Shown here: in pieces, positions 43,729 to 64,000 of the stretch
How the letters are laid out: the number at the start of each line of letters is the position of its first letter
Numbering within the stretch: the first letter of the stretch is position 1
Assembly: GCA_045636445.1 (NCBI GenBank)
Contig: JAZTXO010000124.1
Span: 15,941-79,940, forward strand
Source of the DNA: Eubacteriales bacterium
Lineage (GTDB): Bacteria; Bacillota; Clostridia; Oscillospirales; CAG-272
DNA: 64,000 bases
Reading direction: 5' to 3'
Made by a program: the position numbers and the translations under genes
The notes under the pieces: model-generated
The model's database searches: none
Told to the model about the DNA's origin: nothing
What the model saw: the letters and a program-made list of their open reading frames with translations, nothing else

Positions 43729-45771
43729 TTATTCTCTGCCGATAAGGTTAATGCATCTTATTTTAAGCTGCTTTTTAAGATTTTTCACCGTTTCGGGAAG
43801 CTCGGTAAGGTTAAGTTCGATTTTCACCGGAGCTTTTGTGGTTATGTCAAAATAGTTGTCCGAGAACACCGCAGGCGTGTCGGTAAGGACAAGCTCAACT
43901 GCTCCCGCATAGGCTTCCGCAGAAAGGGTTATGCTGAACCGTCTGTCCGAGCCGGAAATTTCCGCCTTAATCTCGGGATTTTTGTACTCGAATTTCTTGT
44001 GAGAGGAGAAAATCTTCGCTCCTCTGAAGCTAAGTCCTGCCGCATCGGTAAAGATATACTCCAAAACTCTGTTGTTCAAATTACCGCTTACGTACTCGGT
44101 AAAGTCTCTTGTAAAGATTTTTCTTCCGGAGGATTCCTCGATTTCAATATCCTCTGTGTTCTTATAAATAAGATTGCACTCCGAGTCGATTATGCGGTAT
44201 TCAAGCTTACCGAAGGCTGCGGTCTGCTTATTATTGTAAGCAAAGAAGGTGACCTGCGTACCGATAATATCGGCATCTATTGCAATGGGTGCGAAAAATT
44301 CCGCTGCGTAATACTGAGCCGCTTTCCAGCCTGCTTCTATATCAAGGGCGGACTCGGAAATAAGTCTCTGCGAGCTTATGTCCGAAAATACTGCTCTGCC
44401 CCTTTCACCGAATTGACGCCTTCTTGCAAACATTTCTCTTTTGTAGTTTTCCGCCTGGGAAAGTCTTGAAAGATATGCAAAATCCGAAGAATTCGAAGGG
44501 TAAAGATAGCCGTGAGCTACGTTTGCGGCAATCTCCTCGCATCTTGCGCCGCTGTATTTTTCCATAACCGGCGAAAGCACGTTTCTGTCAGCCTTGGGAA
44601 CGAAGCGGTAAAGCAAACTGTCCGAAGGAATCGACGGCTCGCCGAAATAGACCGGAGCGCTGTCCTTAAAGGAAAGGCTCAAAACGGGAGCTGCTTCATT
44701 TAATATTGCCGTAATCTCGCTCTTTTTGTCGCTCATACCAACAAGCTCAACCATAGCAAACGAGGGGTGGTGAGCTAAAGCCGCAATGCTCGATAAAACA
44801 GACTCGTCAAAACGCTCCGTCTCGAAAATCACGCTTATGCCGTGTACGTCGCAAAGGTCGAAGAAGCTGTTTGCGGGCAGGCTGTTCTTCACAACGAAGC
44901 AGTTAAATCCTGCCATAGCCGCAGAGGTCACGTATGCCGCAGTGCGACGGCGTACGTCGTTGGGAAGATAAACTCTTTCGGGAATATATACAGAGCCCAT
45001 AGGCAAGAACACTTGCCCGTTTACCACAAGCTTTTCTCTGTCGTCAAAGGAAGCCGCAGTACAAAGACCGACACGCATTTCTACGGTGTCCTCTACCTCG
45101 AGGTCGCCGTAAAGATTTACTGCCAGCTTATAAACGTTTTGAACTCCGAGTCCCTTGGGCCACCAAAGAAGCGGGTCTTTTACGGTTATCTCGGCAACAC
45201 CGTTGGTAAAGCCGCCGTAATAAATATGTCCCGAGCCTGAAATGAGGGTTGCAACGCCTCGGCTGTTTTCGTTGTTTCCAACGGTGAAAAGCTCCACTTT
45301 CACGGTAACAAAATCGCCGATTTCCACTTCTTTAAGCTTTACTGTATCGATTATTGCATTGTCAAAACGCAAAATTTGTATAGGAGAGTGAATTCCATAG
45401 TCGCCCTCGGGCTTCGAGAAAATAAAGGAAAGCTTGTTCTCGCCCATACGAATATTATTTCCAAGGTCAACAAGATAGCTATCCCTCTCACCGTTGAGCA
45501 AGGTTATGCAGCTTCCGTTAAGCTCCACCGAGCAAGGCCCTACAACACCGCGGAGTCTGAGATATGAATATTTTGACTCGGAAATTTCCTCAACGACAAA
45601 AGAGCAGGAAAGCTTCATTTCCTGAAGAGAAATCTCTTCGAAATCAAAGCACCTTCTTTCTGCCATTCCAAGCTCCGAGAGCACAGAATAAAGTGTTTCG
45701 GGCAGCGTTACCGCATAGCCTTCAACTCCGTCGCACTCAAAGAGCATATCCTTTATCTCGCGTCTTATCAT
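43729..45771 (-). CDS. GH2 beta-mannosidase-like protein with degenerate catalytic motifs
   Basis: The ATG at 45771 follows AAGGAG. Its layout is collinear with beta-mannosidases (FFDLCDVHGISV, AHHPSF, C-terminal FSDNYFDI). The expected NE acid/base and WQLND positions are substituted. Confidence 0.45.
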   Translation of the reverse strand: MIRREIKDMLFECDGVEGYAVTLPETLYSVLSELGMAERRCFDFEEISLQEMKLSCSFVVEEISESKYSYLRLRGVVGPCSVELNGSCITLLNGERDSYLVDLGNNIRMGENKLSFIFSKPEGDYGIHSPIQILRFDNAIIDTVKLKEVEIGDFVTVKVELFTVGNNENSRGVATLISGSGHIYYGGFTNGVAEITVKDPLLWWPKGLGVQNVYKLAVNLYGDLEVEDTVEMRVGLCTAASFDDREKLVVNGQVFLPMGSVYIPERVYLPNDVRRRTAAYVTSAAMAGFNCFVVKNSLPANSFFDLCDVHGISVIFETERFDESVLSSIAALAHHPSFAMVELVGMSDKKSEITAILNEAAPVLSLSFKDSAPVYFGEPSIPSDSLLYRFVPKADRNVLSPVMEKYSGARCEEIAANVAHGYLYPSNSSDFAYLSRLSQAENYKREMFARRRQFGERGRAVFSDISSQRLISESALDIEAGWKAAQYYAAEFFAPIAIDADIIGTQVTFFAYNNKQTAAFGKLEYRIIDSECNLIYKNTEDIEIEESSGRKIFTRDFTEYVSGNLNNRVLEYIFTDAAGLSFRGAKIFSSHKKFEYKNPEIKAEISGSDRRFSITLSAEAYAGAVELVLTDTPAVFSDNYFDITTKAPVKIELNLTELPETVKNLKKQLKIRCINLIGRE

Positions 45772-45854
45772 AAAACTCTCCTTTAGCTCCGAGTCGGAGC
45801 AAAATCTCTGTTTATTACAGTATACCACAGTTTTTTAGGAATTTCAACTTTTAA

Positions 45855-53414: not shown

Positions 53415-54188
53415 TTAGAATTTTACAGATGCAACAGAGGTAACTTTTCCACCGGTTGTATCGAGGGTAAATATTGCTCCGTCAGCCTTTGCCTCACCCG
53501 ATGCGGCAACGAACTTTTTAGGGAGTCTTGTTCTCATTTTTTCAACGACGCAATCGGCATCCATTCCGATAACGCCCCCCGACTCGCCGCACATTCCAAC
53601 GTCGGTAATATAACCCGTACCCTTTGGCAAAATCTGCAAATCGGCAGTTTTAACGTGGGTATGAGTGCCGAAAATTACGTTGATTTTTCCGTCGTAGCCG
53701 TAGCCTATTGCGAGTTTTTCGCCCGTTGCTTCCGCGTGTATATCAAGAACGGAGAAATCGTATTTTCCCGCTTCTTCTTTAAGCACTCTGTCAATAAATC
53801 CGAAGGGGTTGTCAAGCACCGGCTCAATATGGATATTTCCCATAGCCGAGATAACGAGAATACGGTATCCGTTGCAGTCTAAGATAGCATATCCTCTGCC
53901 GGGAGCGCTGTCACCGAAGTTTATAGGCCTTAAAATCTCCTTGGTTTCGTCAAGGTAGGTATAAGTCGCCTTGTTTTGCATAGTGTGGTTGCCGCCGGTA
54001 ATGCAGTCTGCTCCCGCGCGAAGAAGCTCCACCGCCCCCTCGGCAGATATTCCCGTAACGAAGGATGCGTTCTCTCCGTTTACGACGCAAAAGTCGATAT
54101 TATTCTCTTTTCTGAATTTCCAGAGATTTCTTTTCAGGTGTTCAAGTCCCTTTTGACTTGTTACGTCGCCAATTACAAGTATTTTCAC
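53415..54188 (-). CDS. ymdB: YmdB-family metallophosphoesterase (2',3'-cyclic-nucleotide phosphodiesterase)
   Basis: KILVIGDV ... NGENAS ... GNH are present. The tracked start at 54230 is TTG. GTG at 54188 gives the canonical N-terminus, so the start is uncertain. Confidence 0.8.
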   Translation of the reverse strand: MKILVIGDVTSQKGLEHLKRNLWKFRKENNIDFCVVNGENASFVTGISAEGAVELLRAGADCITGGNHTMQNKATYTYLDETKEILRPINFGDSAPGRGYAILDCNGYRILVISAMGNIHIEPVLDNPFGFIDRVLKEEAGKYDFSVLDIHAEATGEKLAIGYGYDGKINVIFGTHTHVKTADLQILPKGTGYITDVGMCGESGGVIGMDADCVVEKMRTRLPKKFVAASGEAKADGAIFTLDTTGGKVTSVASVKF

Positions 54189-54353
54189 ATTTTTCTTCTT
54201 TCTATGCCTTAAGATATGTTTATAATTCAAGGCACTTCTATTTTAGCATAATTTGAAAGAATTTACAATACGTTTTTTCTATATATAATATAATAAGGAA
54301 GAAAAAGAACGGCGTGATGCCGTCGCTTTACTATAAAAACTTTATAAAAGGGT

Positions 54354-54382
54354 ATAAAAAGGCTCTCCCAAGCGGGAGAGCC
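54354..54382 (-). terminator. Terminator ending the 63.4-54.4 kb operon
   Basis: The stem ggctctccc / gggagagcc is followed by a U-run on the minus strand. Confidence 0.7.
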
Positions 54383-54406
54383 AAATAATTTTAGAAATTT
54401 AGCGGT

Positions 54407-56428
54407 TTATTGAACAAACAGCACCTTAGTGTTGTCGAAGTACAGTTCACTCGAGCCGGAGTTCATATAGAATCTAAGTCTATTAAGCGTTTCACCGTTA
54501 AAGCCGATAGATTGGGTAGCGCCAACATGAACGTCATTGATATAGAAGTTTACAGTTGTACCCTTAGATTCAATTCTCAGTCTGAACCATTCGCCGCTCG
54601 GTGCTATAGGAGTGATAACATTACTATTGGAAGAATCCTTAAGATATACTGCTCCTGTTGCATCAGTGACAATGTACGCAACGATCTTTCTGGCTGTTCC
54701 GAAGAATTCAATATACATATTCGTTGCCGATATGGAATTTACCATCATATCAGACTCAAATACAAAGGTATCGGTTCCGTTGTATACAGCTGTGCCGTTT
54801 GCTAATCTGAAGTTAGTCTCTTTGCCTTTAAATCCGTAAACCTTTGAAGCGGTACCGTAAGGTGTTCCGTCGGTTATAGCGCCGGTTCCGTCATTGTCGT
54901 ATCTGAATGTGTTGAGCGCATCACCGTCCTCATAGGTTTCAACCTTTGAATCGGGAGTAAGCGTAGGAACGTAAGCATTTGCCTCATGAGCAACCTTTGT
55001 GTTGTCCAAATACAAGTCTCCAACAGAGGTAGAGGATGCTGTGATTAATATATCGTTAAGGGCGTTTACTGCGTGACGTTTGGTAAATGCCGCAGACTCG
55101 CCAATCTTCATATCATTGTAGTATACTACAACCTTTGCTTCTGTGTCGGATACGTCGATGTATTCAGCGCGGAATCTGAACCAGTTTCCTGCAATACCGG
55201 TAGCGGTTACGCTGTCAAGTCCAGAACCGGAAATCTTTCCGTTTCCGTCAGTACCTACACTGAGCTGAATTGTGTACGCAGTTCTTTGCGAAGAAGTTAC
55301 AGATTTGTTTCTGAAGTTTATCTCATAGAGGCAAGATGCGTCAGGATCTGCCATCATATCGGTCTCAAATACGTACTTTGTAGCATTAGCATAAACTGCG
55401 GTAGTATTTATGAAGAACTGGGACTGTCCGGCACTTTCACCCAAAGAAGGAATTCCAACAACCTTAGAGCTTTCGCCGTATGGAGTTCCATCTTCAATCA
55501 CGGGCGCAGAAGCACCTTGGTTGATCCAGTGATCAATTATTCCTGCGCTCTTATACTCGGCAGCGGTGCCAAGCTCGTTCCAAAGAATTCTGCCTGCGGT
55601 ATCGGTAAGGTCAGGCTTGTAAGAGGGAGTAGGAGCAGGCTCTTCGCCGCCCTGAGTTGCAACGGTGAACATGGTGAATCCGCCAACGGTATACTCAGCT
55701 GCGTTAGCAACTTCGGCAGTGGTGATTTCGCCGGTAGAGAGGTCATATACGGTTGCATTCCAGGTTGCAACACCGTCCGCCTGGGGATTGATTACGTCAC
55801 CTGCGAAGTAGATGCCCTGGTCGTACTTGCCGTCAAGAGTTCCGCCCTCAATACCAACGAGAACGTAATCGGTAATAAACTTTGTAATATCGTCTGCGGG
55901 ATCGGAGTTGCCGTTAATAAGAACTCTCTGTGCAGAAGCTCCGTAGCTGAGAAGATCCTCGTAAAGAGCCTTCTTATCGCCCTGCGCCATATCAACGTAA
56001 AGTCTTTCAAGGAGATATTCAACAACGCTGTATCTTACAACCTCGGAATAAACCTCGGTACCAACGATGTGCGCTCTTGCATAAACCTTGTCGCCAAGGA
56101 ACTTTGCAGGGAAGCCTGCGGAGAAGAATGCGGGGTATGTAACTCCTTCGCTCGTATAACCAACGTCATACGCTTCACCGTTATAAGCGGTAGCGTCGGG
56201 ATTAACTGTGGGGTCTTCGAGGTAGTAAAGAAGCTCTACTTCGTTCTCTCCTGCATTGGTGTCGTCAACTGCGAACATAACCTTTACGGTATCGTCATAG
56301 GAAACGTTCTTTGCGATAATGCTTACCGAAAGCTCTTCTTCAGCCGATGCTATAAAGCAAAGTCCAACGGCTAAAACCGCAAGGGTAAGTGCCAAGGTAA
56401 GAATTTTAAACGCTTTTGTGTTTTTCAT
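54407..56428 (-). CDS. Secreted protein with two lectin/LamG-like modules shared with the 1582-aa lipoprotein
   Basis: The signal peptide is MKNTKAFKILTLALTLAVLAVGLCFIASA. Two modules carry DGTPYG.xSKV ... FE(T/S)DMM ... WFR(F/L)R ... LY(L/F)DNTKV. Confidence 0.75.
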   Translation of the reverse strand: MKNTKAFKILTLALTLAVLAVGLCFIASAEEELSVSIIAKNVSYDDTVKVMFAVDDTNAGENEVELLYYLEDPTVNPDATAYNGEAYDVGYTSEGVTYPAFFSAGFPAKFLGDKVYARAHIVGTEVYSEVVRYSVVEYLLERLYVDMAQGDKKALYEDLLSYGASAQRVLINGNSDPADDITKFITDYVLVGIEGGTLDGKYDQGIYFAGDVINPQADGVATWNATVYDLSTGEITTAEVANAAEYTVGGFTMFTVATQGGEEPAPTPSYKPDLTDTAGRILWNELGTAAEYKSAGIIDHWINQGASAPVIEDGTPYGESSKVVGIPSLGESAGQSQFFINTTAVYANATKYVFETDMMADPDASCLYEINFRNKSVTSSQRTAYTIQLSVGTDGNGKISGSGLDSVTATGIAGNWFRFRAEYIDVSDTEAKVVVYYNDMKIGESAAFTKRHAVNALNDILITASSTSVGDLYLDNTKVAHEANAYVPTLTPDSKVETYEDGDALNTFRYDNDGTGAITDGTPYGTASKVYGFKGKETNFRLANGTAVYNGTDTFVFESDMMVNSISATNMYIEFFGTARKIVAYIVTDATGAVYLKDSSNSNVITPIAPSGEWFRLRIESKGTTVNFYINDVHVGATQSIGFNGETLNRLRFYMNSGSSELYFDNTKVLFVQ

Positions 56429-56493
56429 TTTTTCTTTCCTTTCAAAAATAATTTATTTGTTTTCTAATTTTGTTTAATTGAATAGGGTAAAAA

Positions 56494-56610
56494 TTAGGTC
56501 CAACCGTCTTGATCGACGTTTTCTTCCCACCCGGAAGAGGCTGTTATGATGTCGGCTTTGGTAAGCAGTATTACCTCAAGCTTCGCAAGTTCGTATTTTT
56601 TCTTTTCCAT
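56494..56610 (-). CDS. Untracked 38-aa ORF: MEKKKYELAKLEVILLTKADIITASSGWEENVDQDGWT
   Basis: An AAGGAG site lies 9 nt upstream of the ATG at 56610. The ORF sits 18 nt downstream of the giant gene's stop and in the same orientation. It is below the 60-aa track cutoff. Confidence 0.5.
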   Translation of the reverse strand: MEKKKYELAKLEVILLTKADIITASSGWEENVDQDGWT

Positions 56611-56628
56611 GTAATATTTCTCCTTATC

Positions 56629-59600
56629 TTACGTCCAATCGGTATCGCCAACGTTTCCTTGACCGTCGAAGGGTAAATCGCCGTTCTCGGAATCATCGGG
56701 TTCTTGGGGAGTGTCGGGAATAGGAGCTTCAAACTCCTCTGTGGAACAGGTTATTTTGGTGTTGTCGAAATAAATTTCACCGACGTGAGTGGTTTCTGTC
56801 CAAAATCTTATTCTTTCAAAGGCATAAGCGTTTCCGCCCGTCTTGTAAAGACTCGTGTCTATTCTTTCACCGTTAAGATAGAAGGTGATAGCCATTCCGC
56901 CTTCATAATCCGATCCCTTAACTCCGAATTTGAACCATTCACCGTCATTTGCAAGCTCCGCAAGCTGATTTGAGTCGGCATCGAGAAGATAAACCTTTTC
57001 TCCGTCAGCCTTTATATTGAAGCTGAACAGCTGGATATTGCCCGCCGTTCTTATTTGGAATTCGGGGCAAAGATAGCCGTTTGTGGTAAACATCATATCA
57101 CTTTCAAAAAAGGTATAATTTGCCGTGGGTGAAGAAGAGAACTTGAAGGTTACCTCCGGCTTGAAGTTTTCTACCGTCTCAAAGCCGTAAACCTTTGAGC
57201 TTTCTCCGTAAGGAGATCCATCGACTATTCCGTACCAAGAGGTGTTTTCGACAGAATCGCCGCCGTTCCAGTTGTCAAAATAGAATGTATCCAGTTGGTC
57301 GTCTGTTTCGTAGGTCTCAACCGTTGGATCGGCAGGCTCTGCCGGTTCTTCGGGGTTATCGGGAATTTCAGGCTCTTCGGGGCTCGGTTCTTCGGGATCA
57401 GGCTCACCAAACTCATATTTCGGAAGAGTTTCGGGGTCTGCATACACGGAAAGAATTCTTGTATTATCAAGACAAATCTCGCCGGTGTGGGTTGATTCGC
57501 TCCAGAATCTCACTCTGCCAACCGTAGCTACCGAAGCATCGAGAAGATAATTCAGCGCGGTTTTGATCTGTTCACCGTTAAGGTAGAAGGTGATAAGAAG
57601 ACCGCCGCCCTCGTTGGCAGAAGCGGCAACGCCGAATCTAAACCACTCGCCGTCGTTTGCAAGAGTTGCAAGAACTTTGGAGTCGGAATCAAGCAGACAA
57701 ACCTTATTGCCGTCAGCCTTAATATAGAACTTATAGATAAGACTGTTATCGGAGGTTCTGATCTGGAACTCGGGGTTAAGGAGGCCGGTCGTGGTAAACA
57801 TCATATCACTTTCAAAGCTTGCGATGTTTGCCGACTCGCCCGCGTTAAACTTAAATGTAATCTCGGGTTTACATCCGCTAAGGGAACGATAGTAATAAAC
57901 CTTTGAATCTACGCCATATTTACTACCGTTAACGATCTCAGGCTCGCAGGCGGAGGAGCCGCCGTTCCAGTTGTCGAAGGTGAAGGTGTCGATAGGGTCA
58001 TAGGACTCGTAGGTTTCAACCGTTGGGTCAGTAGGCTCTGCCGGTTCTTGGGGAGTGTCGGGAATTTCAGGCTCTTCGGGACTCGGCTCGTCGGGAGTGG
58101 GAGGAGCAACCGGAAGATTCTCGGGAAGCTGATAGGTCAGCTGCGCCATTATCATATTGTCAAAGTAAACCGTTCCTTCCGTAACTCTTTGCTTATCTGC
58201 GGCAAACTGAACTCTCTGAATCTCGGAGACTTCGGGAACGTAGCCGGAATCGTAGGGAACCGTTGACTCTGCAACAAGAGTGTTATTTGCTATTACGGCA
58301 ACGTAGGCTACGCTGTCGGAGACCTTTGCGTAACCGTATTGAAGATTAAACCAGGTTTTGTTATCGGCAAGTTTTGCTTTTGTCATTCCGGGGCCGCTGA
58401 CGTATACTCCGTCGGCTTCGGTGGAAATTGTCAATTCATACGCCTTCGGGCCGCCGAATATAAGAAGCTTAAATGCCGAGCCGGGAAGAGTGTCAAACAT
58501 CACGTCTGTCTGAATTCCGACTGCGTTATAGCTTTCTGCGGTCTTTGTTACGAATAACTGGAAGAGGTCGTCGTCCTTTTGCGCGGTGGTGAGAGCAAGA
58601 ACCTTGGATTCTGCTCCGTAAGGAGTAGCGTCAACTATTTCAAGCTTTCCGCCGGGAAGCCATCTGTCAAGCCATCTCTGGTTGTAATAAGCGCCGATAG
58701 GCTTCGACTCGAAGGTTGCAATACCGGTTTCCGCTTCGGACGGGCCTTCATCATCTTCAACGCCTGCGGGAAGCTCCTTTAAGAACTGCTCAAGGAAGAA
58801 GTTGTCAAAGTAAATGTCACCGCTTGAATTTTTGTCGGCAGAGAACTGAATTCTCTTAACCGAGGTTGCCGAAGTACTCTCTGCTCCGTAAGGAACGGCG
58901 CTTGATGTTATAAACTTATCGTTTACGAATATGTCAAGTATGATTTTACTGTAAGTAAGTCTTGCGTACTCTACTCTTAATGTAAACCATTTTTCACAAT
59001 CTGCAATCTTTATCTGCTCGTCTGTATCTACAACGGAAACGTAAACACCGTCTCCGGGTTTAGATATAAGCTGCATATTAGCCGCTTTTACGGAGGATTG
59101 GTTGCCAAAGAAGAGAAGAGTATATGTAGTTGTGGTATCGGGAACGAACATAATATCGCTTTGGAATGCGATAGAGTTATATGAGCCTTGAGACTTGGTA
59201 ATACGGATTTGAAGAAGGTCGTCACTTCCTGCAAGGGTTGTAAGACGCATTACTCTCGACGCTTCACCGTTAGAATAGCCATCCTCTACTACGACCTCGC
59301 CTTGAGGAGTCCATTTGTCGAGAATTCCGTCGTTCATAAGCTCTTCGACGCTTTCAACGTCCTCAAGATCGAGAGGCACAGGCTTTATTTCCTTATCCTT
59401 GATTATCTCGTCAAGAGATTCGAGAATAAGTCTGTACTTCATAGCGTCGGATGTGGTATAAAGGTCAACTGCTCTAAGCCCTATAAATCCGAACACGTGT
59501 CCCATAACACCCGAAGAGCAAATATAAGAGGAGTTTACGTCGCCTTCGTTCTGGTTTTCAAGAGCTACGGGAAGTCCTTGGGAAGTTTCGGAGGTTTTTG

Positions 59601-61377
59601 TCTGGAAGTAGGAGAAAGAACCCTTCGAGCCGCCGTCATCTTTACGGAAGAGAGCAAACTTTTTCGCAGTAGCTTCAATCATTGCGGGATATTTTTCTGC
59701 ATACTCGGCAGTTAACTCTTTAATAAGAGCCTTTCCTTCAGCTCCGCCATAGGTTGAAATATTTGTTGTGAGAATTGTTATAGCATACCAGGTATTAAGA
59801 ACGCAGCACACGTGGTGAGGGTCTGCCTCGCTGGTGATAGCGTCAATAGAATGCATCAGCAATTTTTCCGCGTTGGGAACGACTTTTTCGACCTTGCTGT
59901 ATGCGCTGGAAATTTTAAGAATACCGTTTACGCAGTCGTATTCATTATTTTCGTAAGGCTCCCAAAGTCCTGTTTCGGGATCTTGGAAAGAGGTGAACCA
60001 ATCCGCCATAATGTCGGCAAGTCTGTAAGTTACGCCACGCTCGGCAAGAACCTTATCTCTGGCGACAATCTGGGGAGCTATGGACTCAAGCTCGTTACCT
60101 ACCCAATAGCTGTCGGTTGCCATTTTTGCTCTGTACTTTTCAAGGTAGGCTTTAAAGTTTACGTCATTCAAAAGGTGGCTTTCAACGCCTGCGTCGGCAT
60201 CATTTGCCAATATCACCTTCGAAACCATCACAGCCATAGAGCCGCCAAGCTTTTCGGTAAGATTTGCAGATGCGGGAAGCACCGTTCCGATAGGATTTTC
60301 ACCCTTAATTCCGGTAGGAGTATCGTAAACGGGAATAGCGTCGAAATGCTCGAGAATTCTTACCGCATTGTTTATATCGCGTCCTTTTCTTGAGGGATAT
60401 TTATCGGTAAGCTCCTTGCCCCACTGGGGATGATAGAAGTGGCCGTTTTCGCCGCTTTGAAGCGATCTTGCGAAATTAACCATCTGCTTTTGCATCTCTT
60501 TTGGAATAATGTCGGCAGGGTTTCCCATTCCGGAAGAAACGATAAATCCGAGAGCCTGGTTGGTACTTTCAAGATCGGGCAGATAACCCTCGGTATTTCT
60601 TGCGGAGTTAGAGTAATAATATCCGCCTACGACCGGGTCGTAAAGGTTGGCAAACCAGCTTACAAGATCATCGGTATAAAGTGCGTAAAATTTCTTAAAC
60701 GCATCTACCGTGGATTTTGCCATCTCCTTGCCGTAATTTCCGACAAGGTCGGCTTCAATCTTTGCCCAAGACTCTTCTATTCTCTTATTGTCAATGGCTT
60801 CTTGGTACTCTATAATATTAAATCTTTCGCAAACAAGAACGCCTTTGTTTGCTTTGAAAGTTTCTTTGGAAGCATACTGCTCCATAAACAGATCTATTGC
60901 AACCTGCTCGGGATGATTTTGTCCCAGCATCCCCTCGTCGTAGGCTATTGCGATAGATTTTCCGTCGGAATAAATACAATATCCAACGTATTCCTCGCCC
61001 TCGGCTTCGATTCTCTCCAAAGCACGGTATGCCTGCCTTGAAATTTCTCTGCCCGTTCTTCCCACAACTATCTCGTGGGTGCTTTCGGGGGCTGCATCGG
61101 TATAAACAAGCACGTCTTTAGCATTTGCACCTATTTTGTAAAACAGGTCGCTAAGGTTTTCTTCCGATACGCCGCCGTGGACGTAAATTATAGAAACTTC
61201 AACATCGGGACTCCAGATAACGTCTTGGTCAACCGGCTTTTCGTCATTTTGAATATTATCCTGATTGTCGGATTGATTAGAATCGTCTGCGTTTTGATTT
61301 TCGTCCTTGTTATTACAAGACGCAAGAAGAGAAATGCAAACAATTATTGACAAAAATGCAATTAAAAGCCTTTTCAT
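56629..61377 (-). CDS. 1582-aa multidomain surface lipoprotein, function unknown
   Basis: The lipobox is LLASC. Order of parts: N/D/Q-rich linker, N-terminal domain, a ~420-aa domain paralogous to the regulator's C-terminus, four ~190-aa lectin-like modules, two Pro/Glu-rich linkers, and an acidic tail ending DTDWT. Confidence 0.8.
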   Translation of the reverse strand: MKRLLIAFLSIIVCISLLASCNNKDENQNADDSNQSDNQDNIQNDEKPVDQDVIWSPDVEVSIIYVHGGVSEENLSDLFYKIGANAKDVLVYTDAAPESTHEIVVGRTGREISRQAYRALERIEAEGEEYVGYCIYSDGKSIAIAYDEGMLGQNHPEQVAIDLFMEQYASKETFKANKGVLVCERFNIIEYQEAIDNKRIEESWAKIEADLVGNYGKEMAKSTVDAFKKFYALYTDDLVSWFANLYDPVVGGYYYSNSARNTEGYLPDLESTNQALGFIVSSGMGNPADIIPKEMQKQMVNFARSLQSGENGHFYHPQWGKELTDKYPSRKGRDINNAVRILEHFDAIPVYDTPTGIKGENPIGTVLPASANLTEKLGGSMAVMVSKVILANDADAGVESHLLNDVNFKAYLEKYRAKMATDSYWVGNELESIAPQIVARDKVLAERGVTYRLADIMADWFTSFQDPETGLWEPYENNEYDCVNGILKISSAYSKVEKVVPNAEKLLMHSIDAITSEADPHHVCCVLNTWYAITILTTNISTYGGAEGKALIKELTAEYAEKYPAMIEATAKKFALFRKDDGGSKGSFSYFQTKTSETSQGLPVALENQNEGDVNSSYICSSGVMGHVFGFIGLRAVDLYTTSDAMKYRLILESLDEIIKDKEIKPVPLDLEDVESVEELMNDGILDKWTPQGEVVVEDGYSNGEASRVMRLTTLAGSDDLLQIRITKSQGSYNSIAFQSDIMFVPDTTTTYTLLFFGNQSSVKAANMQLISKPGDGVYVSVVDTDEQIKIADCEKWFTLRVEYARLTYSKIILDIFVNDKFITSSAVPYGAESTSATSVKRIQFSADKNSSGDIYFDNFFLEQFLKELPAGVEDDEGPSEAETGIATFESKPIGAYYNQRWLDRWLPGGKLEIVDATPYGAESKVLALTTAQKDDDLFQLFVTKTAESYNAVGIQTDVMFDTLPGSAFKLLIFGGPKAYELTISTEADGVYVSGPGMTKAKLADNKTWFNLQYGYAKVSDSVAYVAVIANNTLVAESTVPYDSGYVPEVSEIQRVQFAADKQRVTEGTVYFDNMIMAQLTYQLPENLPVAPPTPDEPSPEEPEIPDTPQEPAEPTDPTVETYESYDPIDTFTFDNWNGGSSACEPEIVNGSKYGVDSKVYYYRSLSGCKPEITFKFNAGESANIASFESDMMFTTTGLLNPEFQIRTSDNSLIYKFYIKADGNKVCLLDSDSKVLATLANDGEWFRFGVAASANEGGGLLITFYLNGEQIKTALNYLLDASVATVGRVRFWSESTHTGEICLDNTRILSVYADPETLPKYEFGEPDPEEPSPEEPEIPDNPEEPAEPADPTVETYETDDQLDTFYFDNWNGGDSVENTSWYGIVDGSPYGESSKVYGFETVENFKPEVTFKFSSSPTANYTFFESDMMFTTNGYLCPEFQIRTAGNIQLFSFNIKADGEKVYLLDADSNQLAELANDGEWFKFGVKGSDYEGGMAITFYLNGERIDTSLYKTGGNAYAFERIRFWTETTHVGEIYFDNTKITCSTEEFEAPIPDTPQEPDDSENGDLPFDGQGNVGDTDWT

Positions 61378-63431
61378 TCTATACTTTTCTCCTTTTCATC
61401 AAGTATTGCTATATATCTGAGTCTGTCTGCTTCGGTAAAGAAAGGAATCATCTCCTGCTTCAGCATTACGAAGATGTGACCGACGATACCCGCAGTACAG
61501 ATATTGGTCGAGTTAAAGTCACCCTCGTTTGTGCCGCTGACAGCAACCGGCATTTCGTGAGAGGCGTGGCTGGTTCTCTCCTTAAGATATGAGAACGAGC
61601 CGTCAGGCTTTCTGAATTTTTTAATCTTTTTTGCCGTAACTCTTATCATTTCGGGATAATTTTTTATCATCTCGGCACGAAGCTGGGCAATCTGTCTTTC
61701 GGCTGCGTAATCGTTATTTTTCCTGCTGGTCTCGGCAACGTTAGTCATTATAACCGTAAGCGAATACCAGGGGTTAAGCACCCAACAAACAGTGTTTGGC
61801 TCTTCGTCGGAAACGATAACGTTTGTTGCCGAACGGAATGCCGCAACCGCATTGGGGAAGGCTCTTCCGACTCGCTGGATTGCACTTGCAACCTTAAGAA
61901 CACCGTTTATCGCCCTAAGACCAAGATGCTCTCGGTTTGCAAAGATGCCCGTTTCGGGATCTTGATATTTAGAGAACCAATCCACGAGAATATCAGCGAA
62001 GCGGTAGTCTGCTCCCGCAGCTTCAAGCTCCTTGTCTCTTGCGGCAATCTCCGATGCCTGGCTCTCAATAGCCGAGCCTGCTTCGTAGGAAGTATTAGGA
62101 TTGTTAAGGTCTATTGCAAGGGTTGAAAGATATTCAATGAAGCTCTCTTTATCCTTAAGTATGGGACTAAACACCCTTCCTGAGCTTTGAGAATCTGAAA
62201 ATTCAGGCTGTGACTGCATCGGTGAGGGTGTTCCGTCGGCAAGAAGTCCGTCTCCCTTTATGCCTGATGGCGTATCGTAGGTTGGCTTAATGCCGCACCA
62301 ATCAAGAAGTCCTATCGCCATTGTAAGGTCTCTGCCTCGACGGGGTTGAAGCTTGTCGGTCATCTCCTTGCCCCATTGGGGATGATAGAAATAACCGTTG
62401 GGGGCTTGGAGTCCCTTGATAAATTTGCCTACCTTGGTTTTCATGTAAGGCGGCAGAGCAGCAAAAATGTCATTATCAAACTTGCCCGCCATTCCAAGAC
62501 CGCGGAATGAGCCGAGTGCAAAGCGTGTGGACTCAATATCGGGAAGGAATCCCTCGTTATCTCTTGCGGAATTAGAGTAATAATATCCGCCGGTTTTCGG
62601 GTCGTAAAGGTTTGCGTGCCAATCGACCACGTCTTTTGAATAAATTGAATAAAGCTCTTTGAGGGCAGAAATGATTTCTTTTGCCTGATCTACACCCATC
62701 TCTGCGGAAAGATTTTTTTCAAGCTCACGCCATTTCTGGCGAAGAAATTCAGCGTCCTTCTCCTTTTGAATTAAAATTTTAGTATCCATCAGTGCGTTAA
62801 AGTTCACCATTTCAGAAACCATTCTCCAAACGCTTGTTCTGTCGTCACTCTCATCTTCCACAGGCTCGAAAACTCCTCGGAAGATATAAAGTCTTTTTCC
62901 GTAATTACTGTTTACTATTTCAAAAACGTACCTACGCTGATGTCTTGCGTTTTTTGCAAACTTCGGGCAATCGTCAAGTACGCATCGCTCAACGAGTCTG
63001 CCGTCATCGGTAAGCACGTTCGCAAAGCCGGAAGCCCCCGGCGCTCCGTCAAGTCTTATCATCCAGATAACGTTGAGGCAGTCGATGTTGTAGGTACATT
63101 TCATATATCCGTTGAAATCTTTTGATAAAAGCTTGTTGAGAAGCTCTGCGTGAGTTGCCGCCTCGATAGTCTTACCGATTCGAATGATCTTATCAACAAA
63201 GGATTTCGTATTTTTTACGTTTCTTGATTGCCACGCACTTTCAATAAGCAGACAGTCGGTGGTAATCCCGAATATTTCGGCAAGTTTTACAATGCTGGAA
63301 AGCTCCGGATCGCCTCTTCCCTGCTCCCACTTGCTCACAGCCTTGTCGGTTACGAAAAGCCTTTCAGCAAGTTGTGCCTGAGTCCATCCTTTTTCCTTTC
63401 TCAGCTCACATATTCTTTTACCAACGTTCAT
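61374..63431 (-). CDS. XRE-family HTH regulator fused to a large sensor-like domain paralogous to the lipoprotein core
   Basis: The ATG at 63431 follows GGAGG. The HTH is GKRICELRKEKGWTQAQLAERLFVTDKAVSKWEQG. There is no signal peptide. The C-terminal ~420 aa align with lipoprotein residues ~233-650. The stop overlaps the lipoprotein start (ATGA). Confidence 0.8.
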   Translation of the reverse strand: MNVGKRICELRKEKGWTQAQLAERLFVTDKAVSKWEQGRGDPELSSIVKLAEIFGITTDCLLIESAWQSRNVKNTKSFVDKIIRIGKTIEAATHAELLNKLLSKDFNGYMKCTYNIDCLNVIWMIRLDGAPGASGFANVLTDDGRLVERCVLDDCPKFAKNARHQRRYVFEIVNSNYGKRLYIFRGVFEPVEDESDDRTSVWRMVSEMVNFNALMDTKILIQKEKDAEFLRQKWRELEKNLSAEMGVDQAKEIISALKELYSIYSKDVVDWHANLYDPKTGGYYYSNSARDNEGFLPDIESTRFALGSFRGLGMAGKFDNDIFAALPPYMKTKVGKFIKGLQAPNGYFYHPQWGKEMTDKLQPRRGRDLTMAIGLLDWCGIKPTYDTPSGIKGDGLLADGTPSPMQSQPEFSDSQSSGRVFSPILKDKESFIEYLSTLAIDLNNPNTSYEAGSAIESQASEIAARDKELEAAGADYRFADILVDWFSKYQDPETGIFANREHLGLRAINGVLKVASAIQRVGRAFPNAVAAFRSATNVIVSDEEPNTVCWVLNPWYSLTVIMTNVAETSRKNNDYAAERQIAQLRAEMIKNYPEMIRVTAKKIKKFRKPDGSFSYLKERTSHASHEMPVAVSGTNEGDFNSTNICTAGIVGHIFVMLKQEMIPFFTEADRLRYIAILDEKEKSIE

Positions 63432-63490
63432 ACGATACACCTCCGAATCGCCTCATCTATTTAAAAATATATCACCCGTACACCCAACGG

Positions 63491-63515
63491 TCAATCTACT
63501 TTTCGTATAGATTGA
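63491..63515. promoter_or_regulatory. Palindromic operator candidate upstream of the XRE-fusion gene
   Basis: In tcaatctacttttcgtatagattga, the arms TCAATCTA / TAGATTGA are separated by 9 nt. The core ctacttttcgtata is repeated in inverted form at 63571-63584. Confidence 0.4.
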
Positions 63516-64000
63516 TTGATACTTACTTATATATATTTTAGCATTATCTACGATTAGTATACAACAAAAATATACGAAAAGTAGAGTTTTTTAAAAATTT
63601 TCTTTAAAACCCTGTAAATATTTCGTCAAGCTGCCTTTTTTGATAATATTAAAGCTTTGTCCGACAAAAAAGCAGACTCCGGCCTTAAAAATTCTCAAAA
63701 AGAGGTTAGAATTTTACTTTCTATACAATTTTAAAAACAAAAAATCAAATCAAACAAATTTTTTCTCTCCTTTTCGTTTAAATTATCCAAAAACAAAAAA
63801 AGAAACGACTCTATACAGAGCCGTTTCAAAATTACTATTATTAAATATTAATAGGTAGAAAATAGGTAGAAAATACGAAGATTAGCCAACTCACACTCCG
63901 CTTTTGATGCGGTGGATTTTAATAAATAAAGACCGCACACAGCCCGAAAGTTACATAAACCTTTAAAATCGGGAGCGAACGGTCTTTAAAACAGAGATTT

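Follow-up and report, generated by a model that had tools for sequence, protein, structure and literature searches.

A toroid-like domain shared by an XRE-type regulator and a surface lipoprotein in an operon of a Eubacteriales bacterium: a candidate peptide-keyed surface system

The 64,000-nucleotide stretch of Eubacteriales bacterium DNA analysed here (contig JAZTXO010000124.1; hereafter, the window) harbours a four-gene operon in which a cytoplasmic transcriptional regulator and a large surface lipoprotein carry copies of the same domain. A check of the open reading frames (ORFs) of the window confirmed the arrangement reported in an initial annotation of this DNA: four co-directional, tightly packed ORFs on the minus strand, which is the strand of all operon and promoter features given below. 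The first ORF (61374-63440) encodes the regulator, and its likely functional start is the ATG at 63431, located 8 nt after a GGAGG sequence. The resulting coding sequence (61374..63431; assigned by ORF calling, Pfam and start-site inspection) spans 685 aa plus stop and comprises an XRE helix-turn-helix (HTH), an SRA-like domain and a toroid-like domain. The regulator stop and the lipoprotein start share 4 nt (ATGA, 61374-61377). The lipoprotein gene (1582 aa plus stop, 56629..61377) is followed after 18 nt by a small ORF of 38 aa (56494..56610) and, after a further gap of 65 nt, by the gene for a secreted protein of 673 aa (54407..56428), which consists of a Sec signal, a conserved N-terminal region and two concanavalin A/laminin G (ConA/LamG)-like modules. 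The operon ends in an intrinsic terminator (54353..54382) with a 9-bp stem containing 7 G-C pairs and a T-run (hairpin and T-run at 54361-54382), and the upstream gene ends in its own terminator at 63802-63827.

The regulator lacks a signal peptide, in agreement with the initial annotation, and its N-terminus begins directly with a Cro/C1-type HTH (aa 9-59, 63255..63407). This region matches Pfam HTH_3 (E 1.2e-12) and Xre-family entries of the PDB, including the ICEBs1 Xre regulator (E 6e-8), which places the protein in the XRE family. It is followed by a PvuRts1I-type SRA-like domain (aa 81-210, 62802..63191) scoring 33.6 bits against PF18491, above the cutoff of 30.2. A profile of aa 81-210 retrieved PvuRts1I (4oky/4oq2, E 1.8e-4) as its sole matches in the PDB, and the region also matches the PADLOC model mREase_II (E 9e-6). 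The likeness is to the C-terminal SRA-like domain of PvuRts1I, an endonuclease dependent on 5hmC, but in the regulator this domain is joined to an HTH and not to a nuclease. In a PADLOC scan for known anti-phage defence systems, the regulator yielded only HTH models and the SRA-like part of mREase_II, and the lipoprotein, the peptide and the secreted protein yielded no match. The SRA-like domain had been overlooked at first, and so had three features described below: the match between peptide and tail, the conserved operators, and how large and how widely distributed the family is.

The C-terminal part of the regulator (aa 219-685, 61377..62777) is a cytoplasmic copy of a domain whose extracellular copy occupies aa 189-660 of the lipoprotein (59398..60813). 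The collinear relationship proposed between both proteins was borne out by BLASTP, which aligned them over 488 columns with 39% identity (E 1e-106), far above chance. An AlphaFold model of the domain (40 homologs) is all-helical, with about 19 helices, and reached a predicted local distance difference test (pLDDT) value of 94 and a predicted template modelling score (pTM) of 0.91. Sequence and profile searches gave no significant match in Pfam, NCBIfam or the PDB sequence set, no glycoside hydrolase (GH) or polysaccharide lyase (PL) model of Pfam matched, and Foldseek searches of the model against the PDB and BFVD returned nothing at E<0.1. The best 150 representatives listed from a search of 1.84 billion proteins were all strong family members, and none of them bridged the domain to a known family. 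Thus, the assertion that the shared domain lies outside the named families holds.

The same annotation had guessed an alpha/alpha toroid. The model has the look of a toroid built from hairpin repeats, and the domain is referred to as toroid-like on this basis, although the evidence is weak and the fold is not established. Weak Pfam Prenyltrans matches in 12 of the 40 family members (best E 0.007), four recurring xPxxG(F/Y) loops (a motif also written (Q/Y/R)xPxxG(F/Y)) and weak internal hairpin repeats (hhalign P ~1e-3) are weakly compatible with such a fold; a match to the TED of C4a was likewise weak (E 1.3). The best Foldseek matches, none of them significant, were the (alpha/alpha)6 glycosidases GH76, GH116, GH88 and GH105 (E 0.2-1.5, TM <=0.31) and designed toroids, and they included no prenyltransferase or cyclase. 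The domain resembles the described alpha/alpha toroids (prenyltransferase beta, terpenoid cyclase, TED, six-hairpin glycosidases) in its helical hairpin repeat, its loops and its weak matches, but it differs from them in lacking a significant match, a DxDD motif and an evident Zn site, and in its low Foldseek TM despite the confident model. Neither a DxDD motif nor an invariant Cys or His triad is found among the invariant columns, where PD(L/I)EST is the nearest motif. Searches of the regulator against Pfam, NCBIfam and the PDB yielded no match to a TPR or RRNPP model; among the 50 top Foldseek matches, the single TPR entry was a designed consensus repeat (E 1.3), and RRNPP structures were absent at E<0.2.

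The toroid-like domains inside and outside the cell share 22 invariant columns, all of which are retained in the regulator and lipoprotein copies. They include D83, E85, S86 and T87 (PD(L/I)EST), Q137 and W138 (HPQW), R149, R152 and D153 (RRGRD), and D423 (EGD), a pattern which suggests that the family may possess a conserved pocket. A Ser/Gln-rich loop of low confidence (pLDDT <50) separates the two toroid halves at the same position in both copies (regulator aa ~410-421, window ~62170-62205; aa 358-381 of the lipoprotein homolog P0243) and is longer in the lipoprotein lineage.

The lipoprotein begins with a signal peptide (aa 1-21, 61315..61377; MKRLLIAFLSIIVCISLLAS-C) that ends in the Cys of the lipobox LLAS-C. 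A conserved alpha/beta domain (aa ~50-188, 60814..61230; residues 45-178 in P0243, pLDDT >90) precedes the toroid-like domain, which is followed by four ConA/LamG-like modules at aa 697-860 (58798..59289), 905-1075 (58153..58665), 1113-1309 (57451..58041) and 1346-1548 (56734..57342); all four were delimited by phmmer, and the assignment of the first two also draws on Foldseek. Two further modules are present in the secreted protein (aa 310-480 and 493-669), whose Sec signal ends in ASA. The count of six modules of ~190 aa, four in the lipoprotein and two in the secreted protein, was thereby reproduced, with phmmer domain E values from 2e-8 to 2e-141. Their suspected ConA/LamG-like nature also found support. 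The model of P0243 (1124 aa, 59% identical to the lipoprotein) consists of an alpha/beta N-domain, a toroid and two beta-sandwich modules, and these modules matched the PDB entries of CBM22, Vibrio cholerae sialidase lectin domains, BoNT/NTNH Hc, SGBP-B, galectins and laminin LG (Foldseek, E 4e-9 to 1e-5). The window modules gave a Pfam 3keto-disac_hyd match just under the cutoff (E 2.4e-5), and some homologs bear Laminin_G_3, 3keto-disac_hyd or polysaccharide-lyase-type jelly-roll matches. In two regulator-bearing lineages, L006 (15519-20330) and L012 (5874-10688), the secreted ConA-module protein has grown to ~1,600 aa with about eight modules, some of which are nearly identical tandem copies.

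After a Pro-rich linker, the lipoprotein terminates in an acidic, Trp-ending tail (LPFDGQGNVGDTDWT, 56632..56676). The tail Trp is invariant among 42 aligned lipoprotein homologs, and a linker and acidic tail of this type are found at the C-terminus of most large toroid lipoproteins. The adjoining small ORF, preceded by a strong ribosome-binding site (AAGGAG) 8 nt upstream, encodes a leader (KKKYELAKLEVILLTKADIITAS) and an acidic core (SSGWEENVDQDGWT, 56494-56535) ending in NVDQDGWT. It belongs to a peptide family with more than 45 members among the small ORFs of the fetched loci, in which a leader of the pattern M.KKK..PY..P.LEII.F...DVI.TSG is joined to a variable, acidic, Gly-rich core ending in GW(T/S/A). 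No Pfam or NCBIfam model matches the family, and the literature searched contained neither the leader motif nor a relevant description of the system.

Peptide cores are similar to the tails of the lipoproteins encoded in the same locus, and the two sequences co-vary from locus to locus. This resemblance was observed in the window and in L001, L004, L008-L015, L018, L019, L047, L057, L068 and L080. The core DEYVNPGEWT accompanies the tail DEYVIEGEWS in L009, DWTPKHT accompanies GWTPPRT in L014, GDWTPERN accompanies GGWTPERP in L013, and EGDEDNFGWA accompanies GDEDSFGWS in L080. Across 15 loci, cognate pairs scored 41 versus 26 for non-cognate pairs (permutation p<1e-5), and ten of the 15 tails scored best with the peptide of their own locus. 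Recent gene conversion was rejected as the source of the similarity, since matching residues use different synonymous codons, and the similarity is therefore maintained at the protein level. Readthrough from the lipoprotein into the peptide was likewise discarded. In L001, L009 and L011, where gaps of 52, 52 and 17 nt separate the two ORFs, their reading frames differ; since the shared frame is not kept in other loci, readthrough is unlikely. In the window, the small ORF lies in the frame of the lipoprotein, separated by TAA and 18 nt (56611-56628) with no further stop.

The toroid-like domain defines a large family. A profile of the toroid-like domain retrieved 1,382 clusters (50% identity) from 1.84 billion representatives, 941 of them at E<=1e-30. 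In a scan of one genome per species, the 272 toroid matches were concentrated in a handful of uncultured gut metagenome-assembled genomes (MAGs); those rich in the domain are Eubacteriales bacterium SGB_7875 (at least 20 loci), Clostridia bacterium RGIG4736, RGIG8750 and RGIG4040, Oscillospiraceae and uncultured Ruminococcus. Large toroid proteins (560-2,746 aa) and stand-alone ones (410-490 aa, without a signal peptide) occur together, in either order, in 56 of 79 loci. A lipobox-like motif is present in 66 of 95 large toroid proteins, and 55 of the 95 have a directly adjacent stand-alone partner. Instead of a simple pair, some loci hold tandem arrays of paralogous toroid genes, with four to six stand-alone genes in L053, L054 and L059 and six large ones in L071; L072 is listed with them.

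The four genes are conserved as a unit and in the same order in L001-L004 and L011, in line with the co-conservation that the initial annotation would lead one to expect. The regulators of L001, L004 and L011 are 77-84% identical to that of the window, and the surface proteins 48-74%. The rny (RNase Y) and ymdB genes, which are neighbours in Bacillus, enclose the inserted cassette in L001-L003, L006 and L007 (L001, 8032-18714; L006, 8027-21320), and ymdB flanks the operon both in the window (53415-54230) and in L011. In L004, it resides at a different chromosomal site, between an AraC gene and a GH2 gene, and the two chromosomal contexts indicate that the cassette moves as a unit. The loci L008, L009 and L010 keep the gene order of the window with toroids 42-46% identical, and their first gene lacks the HTH and SRA-like domains.

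The pairing of a DNA-binding regulator with a copy of the lipoprotein's domain, the central observation of the initial annotation, is thus real in the window but represents a derived special case, the usual partner being a cytoplasmic toroid protein of ~470 aa without a DNA-binding domain. The HTH-SRA-toroid proteins form a tight clade of at least 13 clusters at >=79% identity among the matches listed. The HTH plus SRA-like module also occurs in free-standing proteins of ~220 aa (P0124-P0128, 46-49% identity), and stand-alone toroids 66-72% identical to the toroid-like domain of the regulator exist. L011 contains a fused regulator (84% identical), a stand-alone toroid of 478 aa, a lipoprotein of 1582 aa, the peptide and the secreted protein. 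The coexistence of both forms in L011 and the close stand-alone toroids show that the cytoplasmic toroid gene of the cassette was duplicated and that one copy was joined to a free-standing HTH-SRA module to give the regulator. This fusion, a recent one, is restricted to a narrow clade, and the unfused cytoplasmic toroid was later lost in the lineage of the window. Identities between the window and L011 fall from 89% (ymdB) and 84% (regulator) to 74% (lipoprotein), 55% (secreted protein) and 51% (peptide); the exposed parts and the peptide evolve fastest. A Rosetta-stone argument, by which free-standing HTH-SRA genes would adjoin toroid cassettes, was dropped, as no toroid gene was found nearby in the one locus examined of the set L083-L085. 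The free-standing HTH-SRA gene of L083 adjoins a PemK toxin gene, a gene for a sigma-70 region-4 protein and a DUF2089 gene.

Upstream of the regulator gene, a sigma-70-type promoter candidate (TTGACC-17-TATATT, with TG before the -10; 63466..63494) was located, whose position and -35/-10 elements are kept in related loci. A proximal operator-like arm (63495..63509) abuts the -35 hexamer and forms a perfect 15-nt inverted repeat, TCTACTTTTCGTATA, with a distal arm (63571..63585; TATACGAAAAGTAGA on the plus strand), and a third, degenerate copy (TCTCCTTTTCGTTTA, 63766..63780) shows two mismatches to the 14-nt core. All three matches within the 64-kb window are upstream of the regulator. The exact operator sequence is absent from the other regulator-bearing loci, where the layout and half-site-like elements are kept: a site GTATACG(G/A)AAAGTATA lies directly upstream of TTGAC in all five of them, and a larger palindrome, TCTAC-N5-GTATAC ... 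GTATTC-N5-GTAGA, is kept further upstream in L001, L004, L006, L011 and L012. Such a footprint is what an autoregulated XRE protein would leave, and we infer that the regulator binds the repeats at 63495-63509 and 63571-63585, which are considered candidate sites. The location of the proximal site, centred near -44, is compatible with activation or repression; the lambda cI protein activates PRM from a comparable site.

The operon exemplifies an undescribed cassette that is widespread among gut Clostridia. The core of this cassette comprises three parts: a surface lipoprotein with its alpha/beta N-domain, ~470-aa toroid, ConA/LamG modules, Pro-rich linker and acidic Trp-ending tail; a cytoplasmic paralog of the toroid-like domain; and a peptide of ~40 aa with a conserved leader and a variable acidic core resembling the tail. 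Beyond the observed gene order, homology, fusion history, co-conservation, peptide/tail co-variation and operator conservation, we propose that the regulator would be an autoregulatory one-component transcription factor, its HTH, perhaps together with the SRA-like domain, binding the inverted repeats at its own promoter and its toroid-like domain serving as the sensor. The ligand would be an acidic, Trp-ending peptide segment recognised by the toroid family. The small peptide, recruited by its leader, might supply this segment in trans in the cytoplasm, and the lipoprotein tail would present it in cis on the surface, covalently tethered; the state of peptide or tail would thereby control whether the surface apparatus is expressed. 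Taken as a whole, this autoregulatory, peptide-keyed regulator model is put forward tentatively, as the reading that we favour but would stop short of calling probable. The original notion that the regulator senses the ligand or product of the lipoprotein is plausible, and the data suggest a candidate ligand that it had left out of account, the tail-like peptide of the operon itself. The observations of the initial annotation stood, and its interpretation received partial support.

A wider formulation is that the cassette constitutes a new peptide-keyed surface system, in which the toroid family would recognise, or chemically act on, the acidic Trp-ending segment. A per-locus key would be displayed in cis as the tail and in trans as the leader-bearing peptide, and read by the cytoplasmic paralog, here hard-wired to DNA binding, which would define a non-RRNPP, non-TPR class of peptide-responsive one-component regulators. 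In this full extent, the proposal appears unlikely, if worth stating.

Several observations weigh against a peptide as the key. The pair of the window itself (NVDQDGWT and NVGDTDWT) is among the weakest, ranking tenth of 15. L006/L007 and L012 keep the regulator and the tail without a peptide gene, and therefore the peptide cannot be an obligatory ligand. The peptide lacks a signal peptide, and neither exporters nor importers are recurrent neighbours of the cassettes. In the AlphaFold model of P0243, the linker and tail have pLDDT values of 27-42 and give no sign of docking in cis on the toroid, an indirect indication, as contacts were not reported. Finally, AraC-type regulators and glycoside hydrolase genes flank most cassettes and the modules resemble carbohydrate-binding modules (CBMs), a context that indicates a sugar rather than a peptide signal.

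This context is at the heart of the leading alternative, a glycan-processing pair in which the toroid-like domain would be a new (alpha/alpha)-type carbohydrate-active enzyme (CAZyme) or glycan-binding domain and the HTH-fused paralog a sugar-sensing regulator, in a relation like that between LacI-family sensors and periplasmic binding proteins. The lipoprotein would capture or cut a polymer, its modules serving as CBMs, and fragments taken up by the cell would be processed by the cytoplasmic paralog; the peptide and tail would be accessory, e.g., autoinhibitory or anchoring. The commonest cassette neighbour is indeed an AraC-type regulator (AraC_binding or PocR plus HTH_18), adjoining 39 of 78 loci, and GH4, GH20, GH39, GH2, DUF4838 and GFO/IDH/MocA (GH109-like) genes recur around the cassettes. 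In the same direction point the best structural matches of the modules (CBM22, sialidase lectin domains, SGBP-B), the glycosidases that head the non-significant Foldseek matches of the toroid, the many invariant Asp, Glu, Arg, Trp and Tyr residues in its inside and outside copies, and the many loci per genome, as in CAZyme families of gut bacteria. However, those toroid matches remain non-significant (Foldseek E >=0.2, TM about <=0.3), no GH or PL model of Pfam recognises the domain, no transporter, for sugars or otherwise, is among the recurrent neighbours of the 78 loci, and the leader-core peptide and its co-variation with the tail are left unexplained. We regard glycan sensing as a possible though rather unlikely account of the cassette; it and the peptide-keyed model are not mutually exclusive.

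The likeness of the small ORF to the precursor of a ribosomally synthesised and post-translationally modified peptide (RiPP) leads to a further alternative. The leader would recruit the cytoplasmic toroid as an enzyme modifying the Trp or the C-terminus, the substrate of the lipoprotein toroid would be the tail tethered to it, and the HTH-fused copy would link transcription to modification or occupancy, by analogy with the LanC and prenyltransferase toroids that act on peptides. The architecture is typical of a precursor, in that a conserved leader is followed by a hypervariable core with an invariant Trp close to the C-terminus; the Y-x-x-P-x-L ... T-x pattern of the leader, with its Thr two residues before the presumed leader/core border, recalls lasso leaders recognised by a RiPP recognition element (RRE). 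The weak Prenyltrans matches, the recurring (Q/Y/R)xPxxG(F/Y) motifs and the weak internal hairpin repeats of the toroid might be read in the same sense. Nevertheless, no RRE domain, protease, cyclase, radical-SAM enzyme or exporter is present in or near the cassettes, and no RiPP enzyme is among the recurrent neighbours of the 78 loci, which thus lack the maturation enzymes of known RiPP classes. A LanC-type reaction is ruled out by the absence of Cys from the peptides, the peptide family has no NCBIfam or Pfam match, and an extracellular toroid would have no prenyl diphosphate or ATP at its disposal. A lasso peptide was rejected, because the first core residue and the acidic positions are unfit and neither B (RRE/protease) nor C (cyclase) genes are among those recurrent neighbours. 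Overall, RiPP-like maturation is an improbable explanation.

Very doubtful, lastly, is the absence of any functional coupling, with the toroid as a recruited oligomerisation or scaffold domain without ligand binding and an ordinary XRE repressor upstream by chance: XRE regulators with assorted C-terminal domains are very common and the ligand is so far hypothetical, but the toroid of the regulator retains every invariant residue of the family, the regulator is better conserved across relatives (77-84% identity) than the surface proteins (48-74%), and its gene is always the first in the cassette, overlapping or closely 5' of the lipoprotein gene, in two genomic contexts.

Returning to the peptide-keyed model, its closest parallel is the RRNPP family (PlcR/PapR, Rgg/SHP, ComR/ComS, AimR), with which the system shares an N-terminal XRE HTH, an all-helical repeat sensor, a gene in the locus for a peptide of ~40 aa with a variable, specificity-bearing C-terminal part, and probable autoregulation. 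Unlike RRNPP members, the regulator lacks the defining TPR sensor and has an SRA-like domain between HTH and sensor; the peptide has no signal sequence or known export route; the sensor has an extracellular lipoprotein paralog with a peptide-like tail; and most toroid cassettes lack an HTH altogether. LacI/GalR regulators and type I periplasmic binding proteins offer a precedent for one ligand-binding fold that serves outside the cell and also, as part of an HTH protein, in the cytoplasm, with the regulator adjoining its probable target genes, but here the fold is a different, uncharacterised one, and the cytoplasmic paralog normally stands unfused, its fusion to an HTH being a recent event within a narrow clade. 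RiPP and lasso precursors share with the small ORF the conserved leader and variable core, and differ from it as detailed above, in that its core is not lasso-like. SusE/F, surface glycan-binding proteins (SGBPs) and CBM-bearing CAZymes resemble the cassette in that a lipid-anchored, multi-module surface protein carries ConA/CBM-like beta-sandwich repeats and in that many paralogous loci per genome lie close to AraC regulators and GH genes; in contrast, the cassette has no SusC/D or ABC transporter partner, its central domain is novel, and a cytoplasmic paralog and a tail-like peptide form part of the unit.

The three components other than the HTH all fall outside described families, and the extracellular lipoprotein paralog, the tail-matched peptide, the SRA-like insert and the dozens of loci per genome are features without a described counterpart. 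We therefore rate the system, known here from sequences and models, as new in kind. Should the coupling be real, it would represent an undescribed, highly expanded system of uncultured gut Clostridia (Oscillospiraceae-like MAGs from ruminants and humans). It adds a new domain family of ~470 aa, with about 1,400 clusters at 50% identity and a confident model, and a new leader-core peptide family governed by a newly noticed rule, namely, that the core follows the tail of the surface protein encoded next to it. Genomes with dozens of such loci evidently invest heavily in the cell surface, e.g., in glycan foraging, adhesion or cell-cell recognition, and the HTH-fused variant provides the most tractable entry to what the toroid-like domain recognises.

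The operon of the window is flanked by the housekeeping genes ymdB, mnmG, gerA, dus, addA and metF and a P-type ATPase gene, which indicates that the locus is chromosomal and belongs to a spore-forming member of the Clostridia. A gene for a GH2-like protein with Glyco_hydro_2 and mannosidase Ig-like domains lies at 43729-45828, some 9 kb away from the operon; it may be unrelated, but its presence fits the carbohydrate context of the other cassettes.

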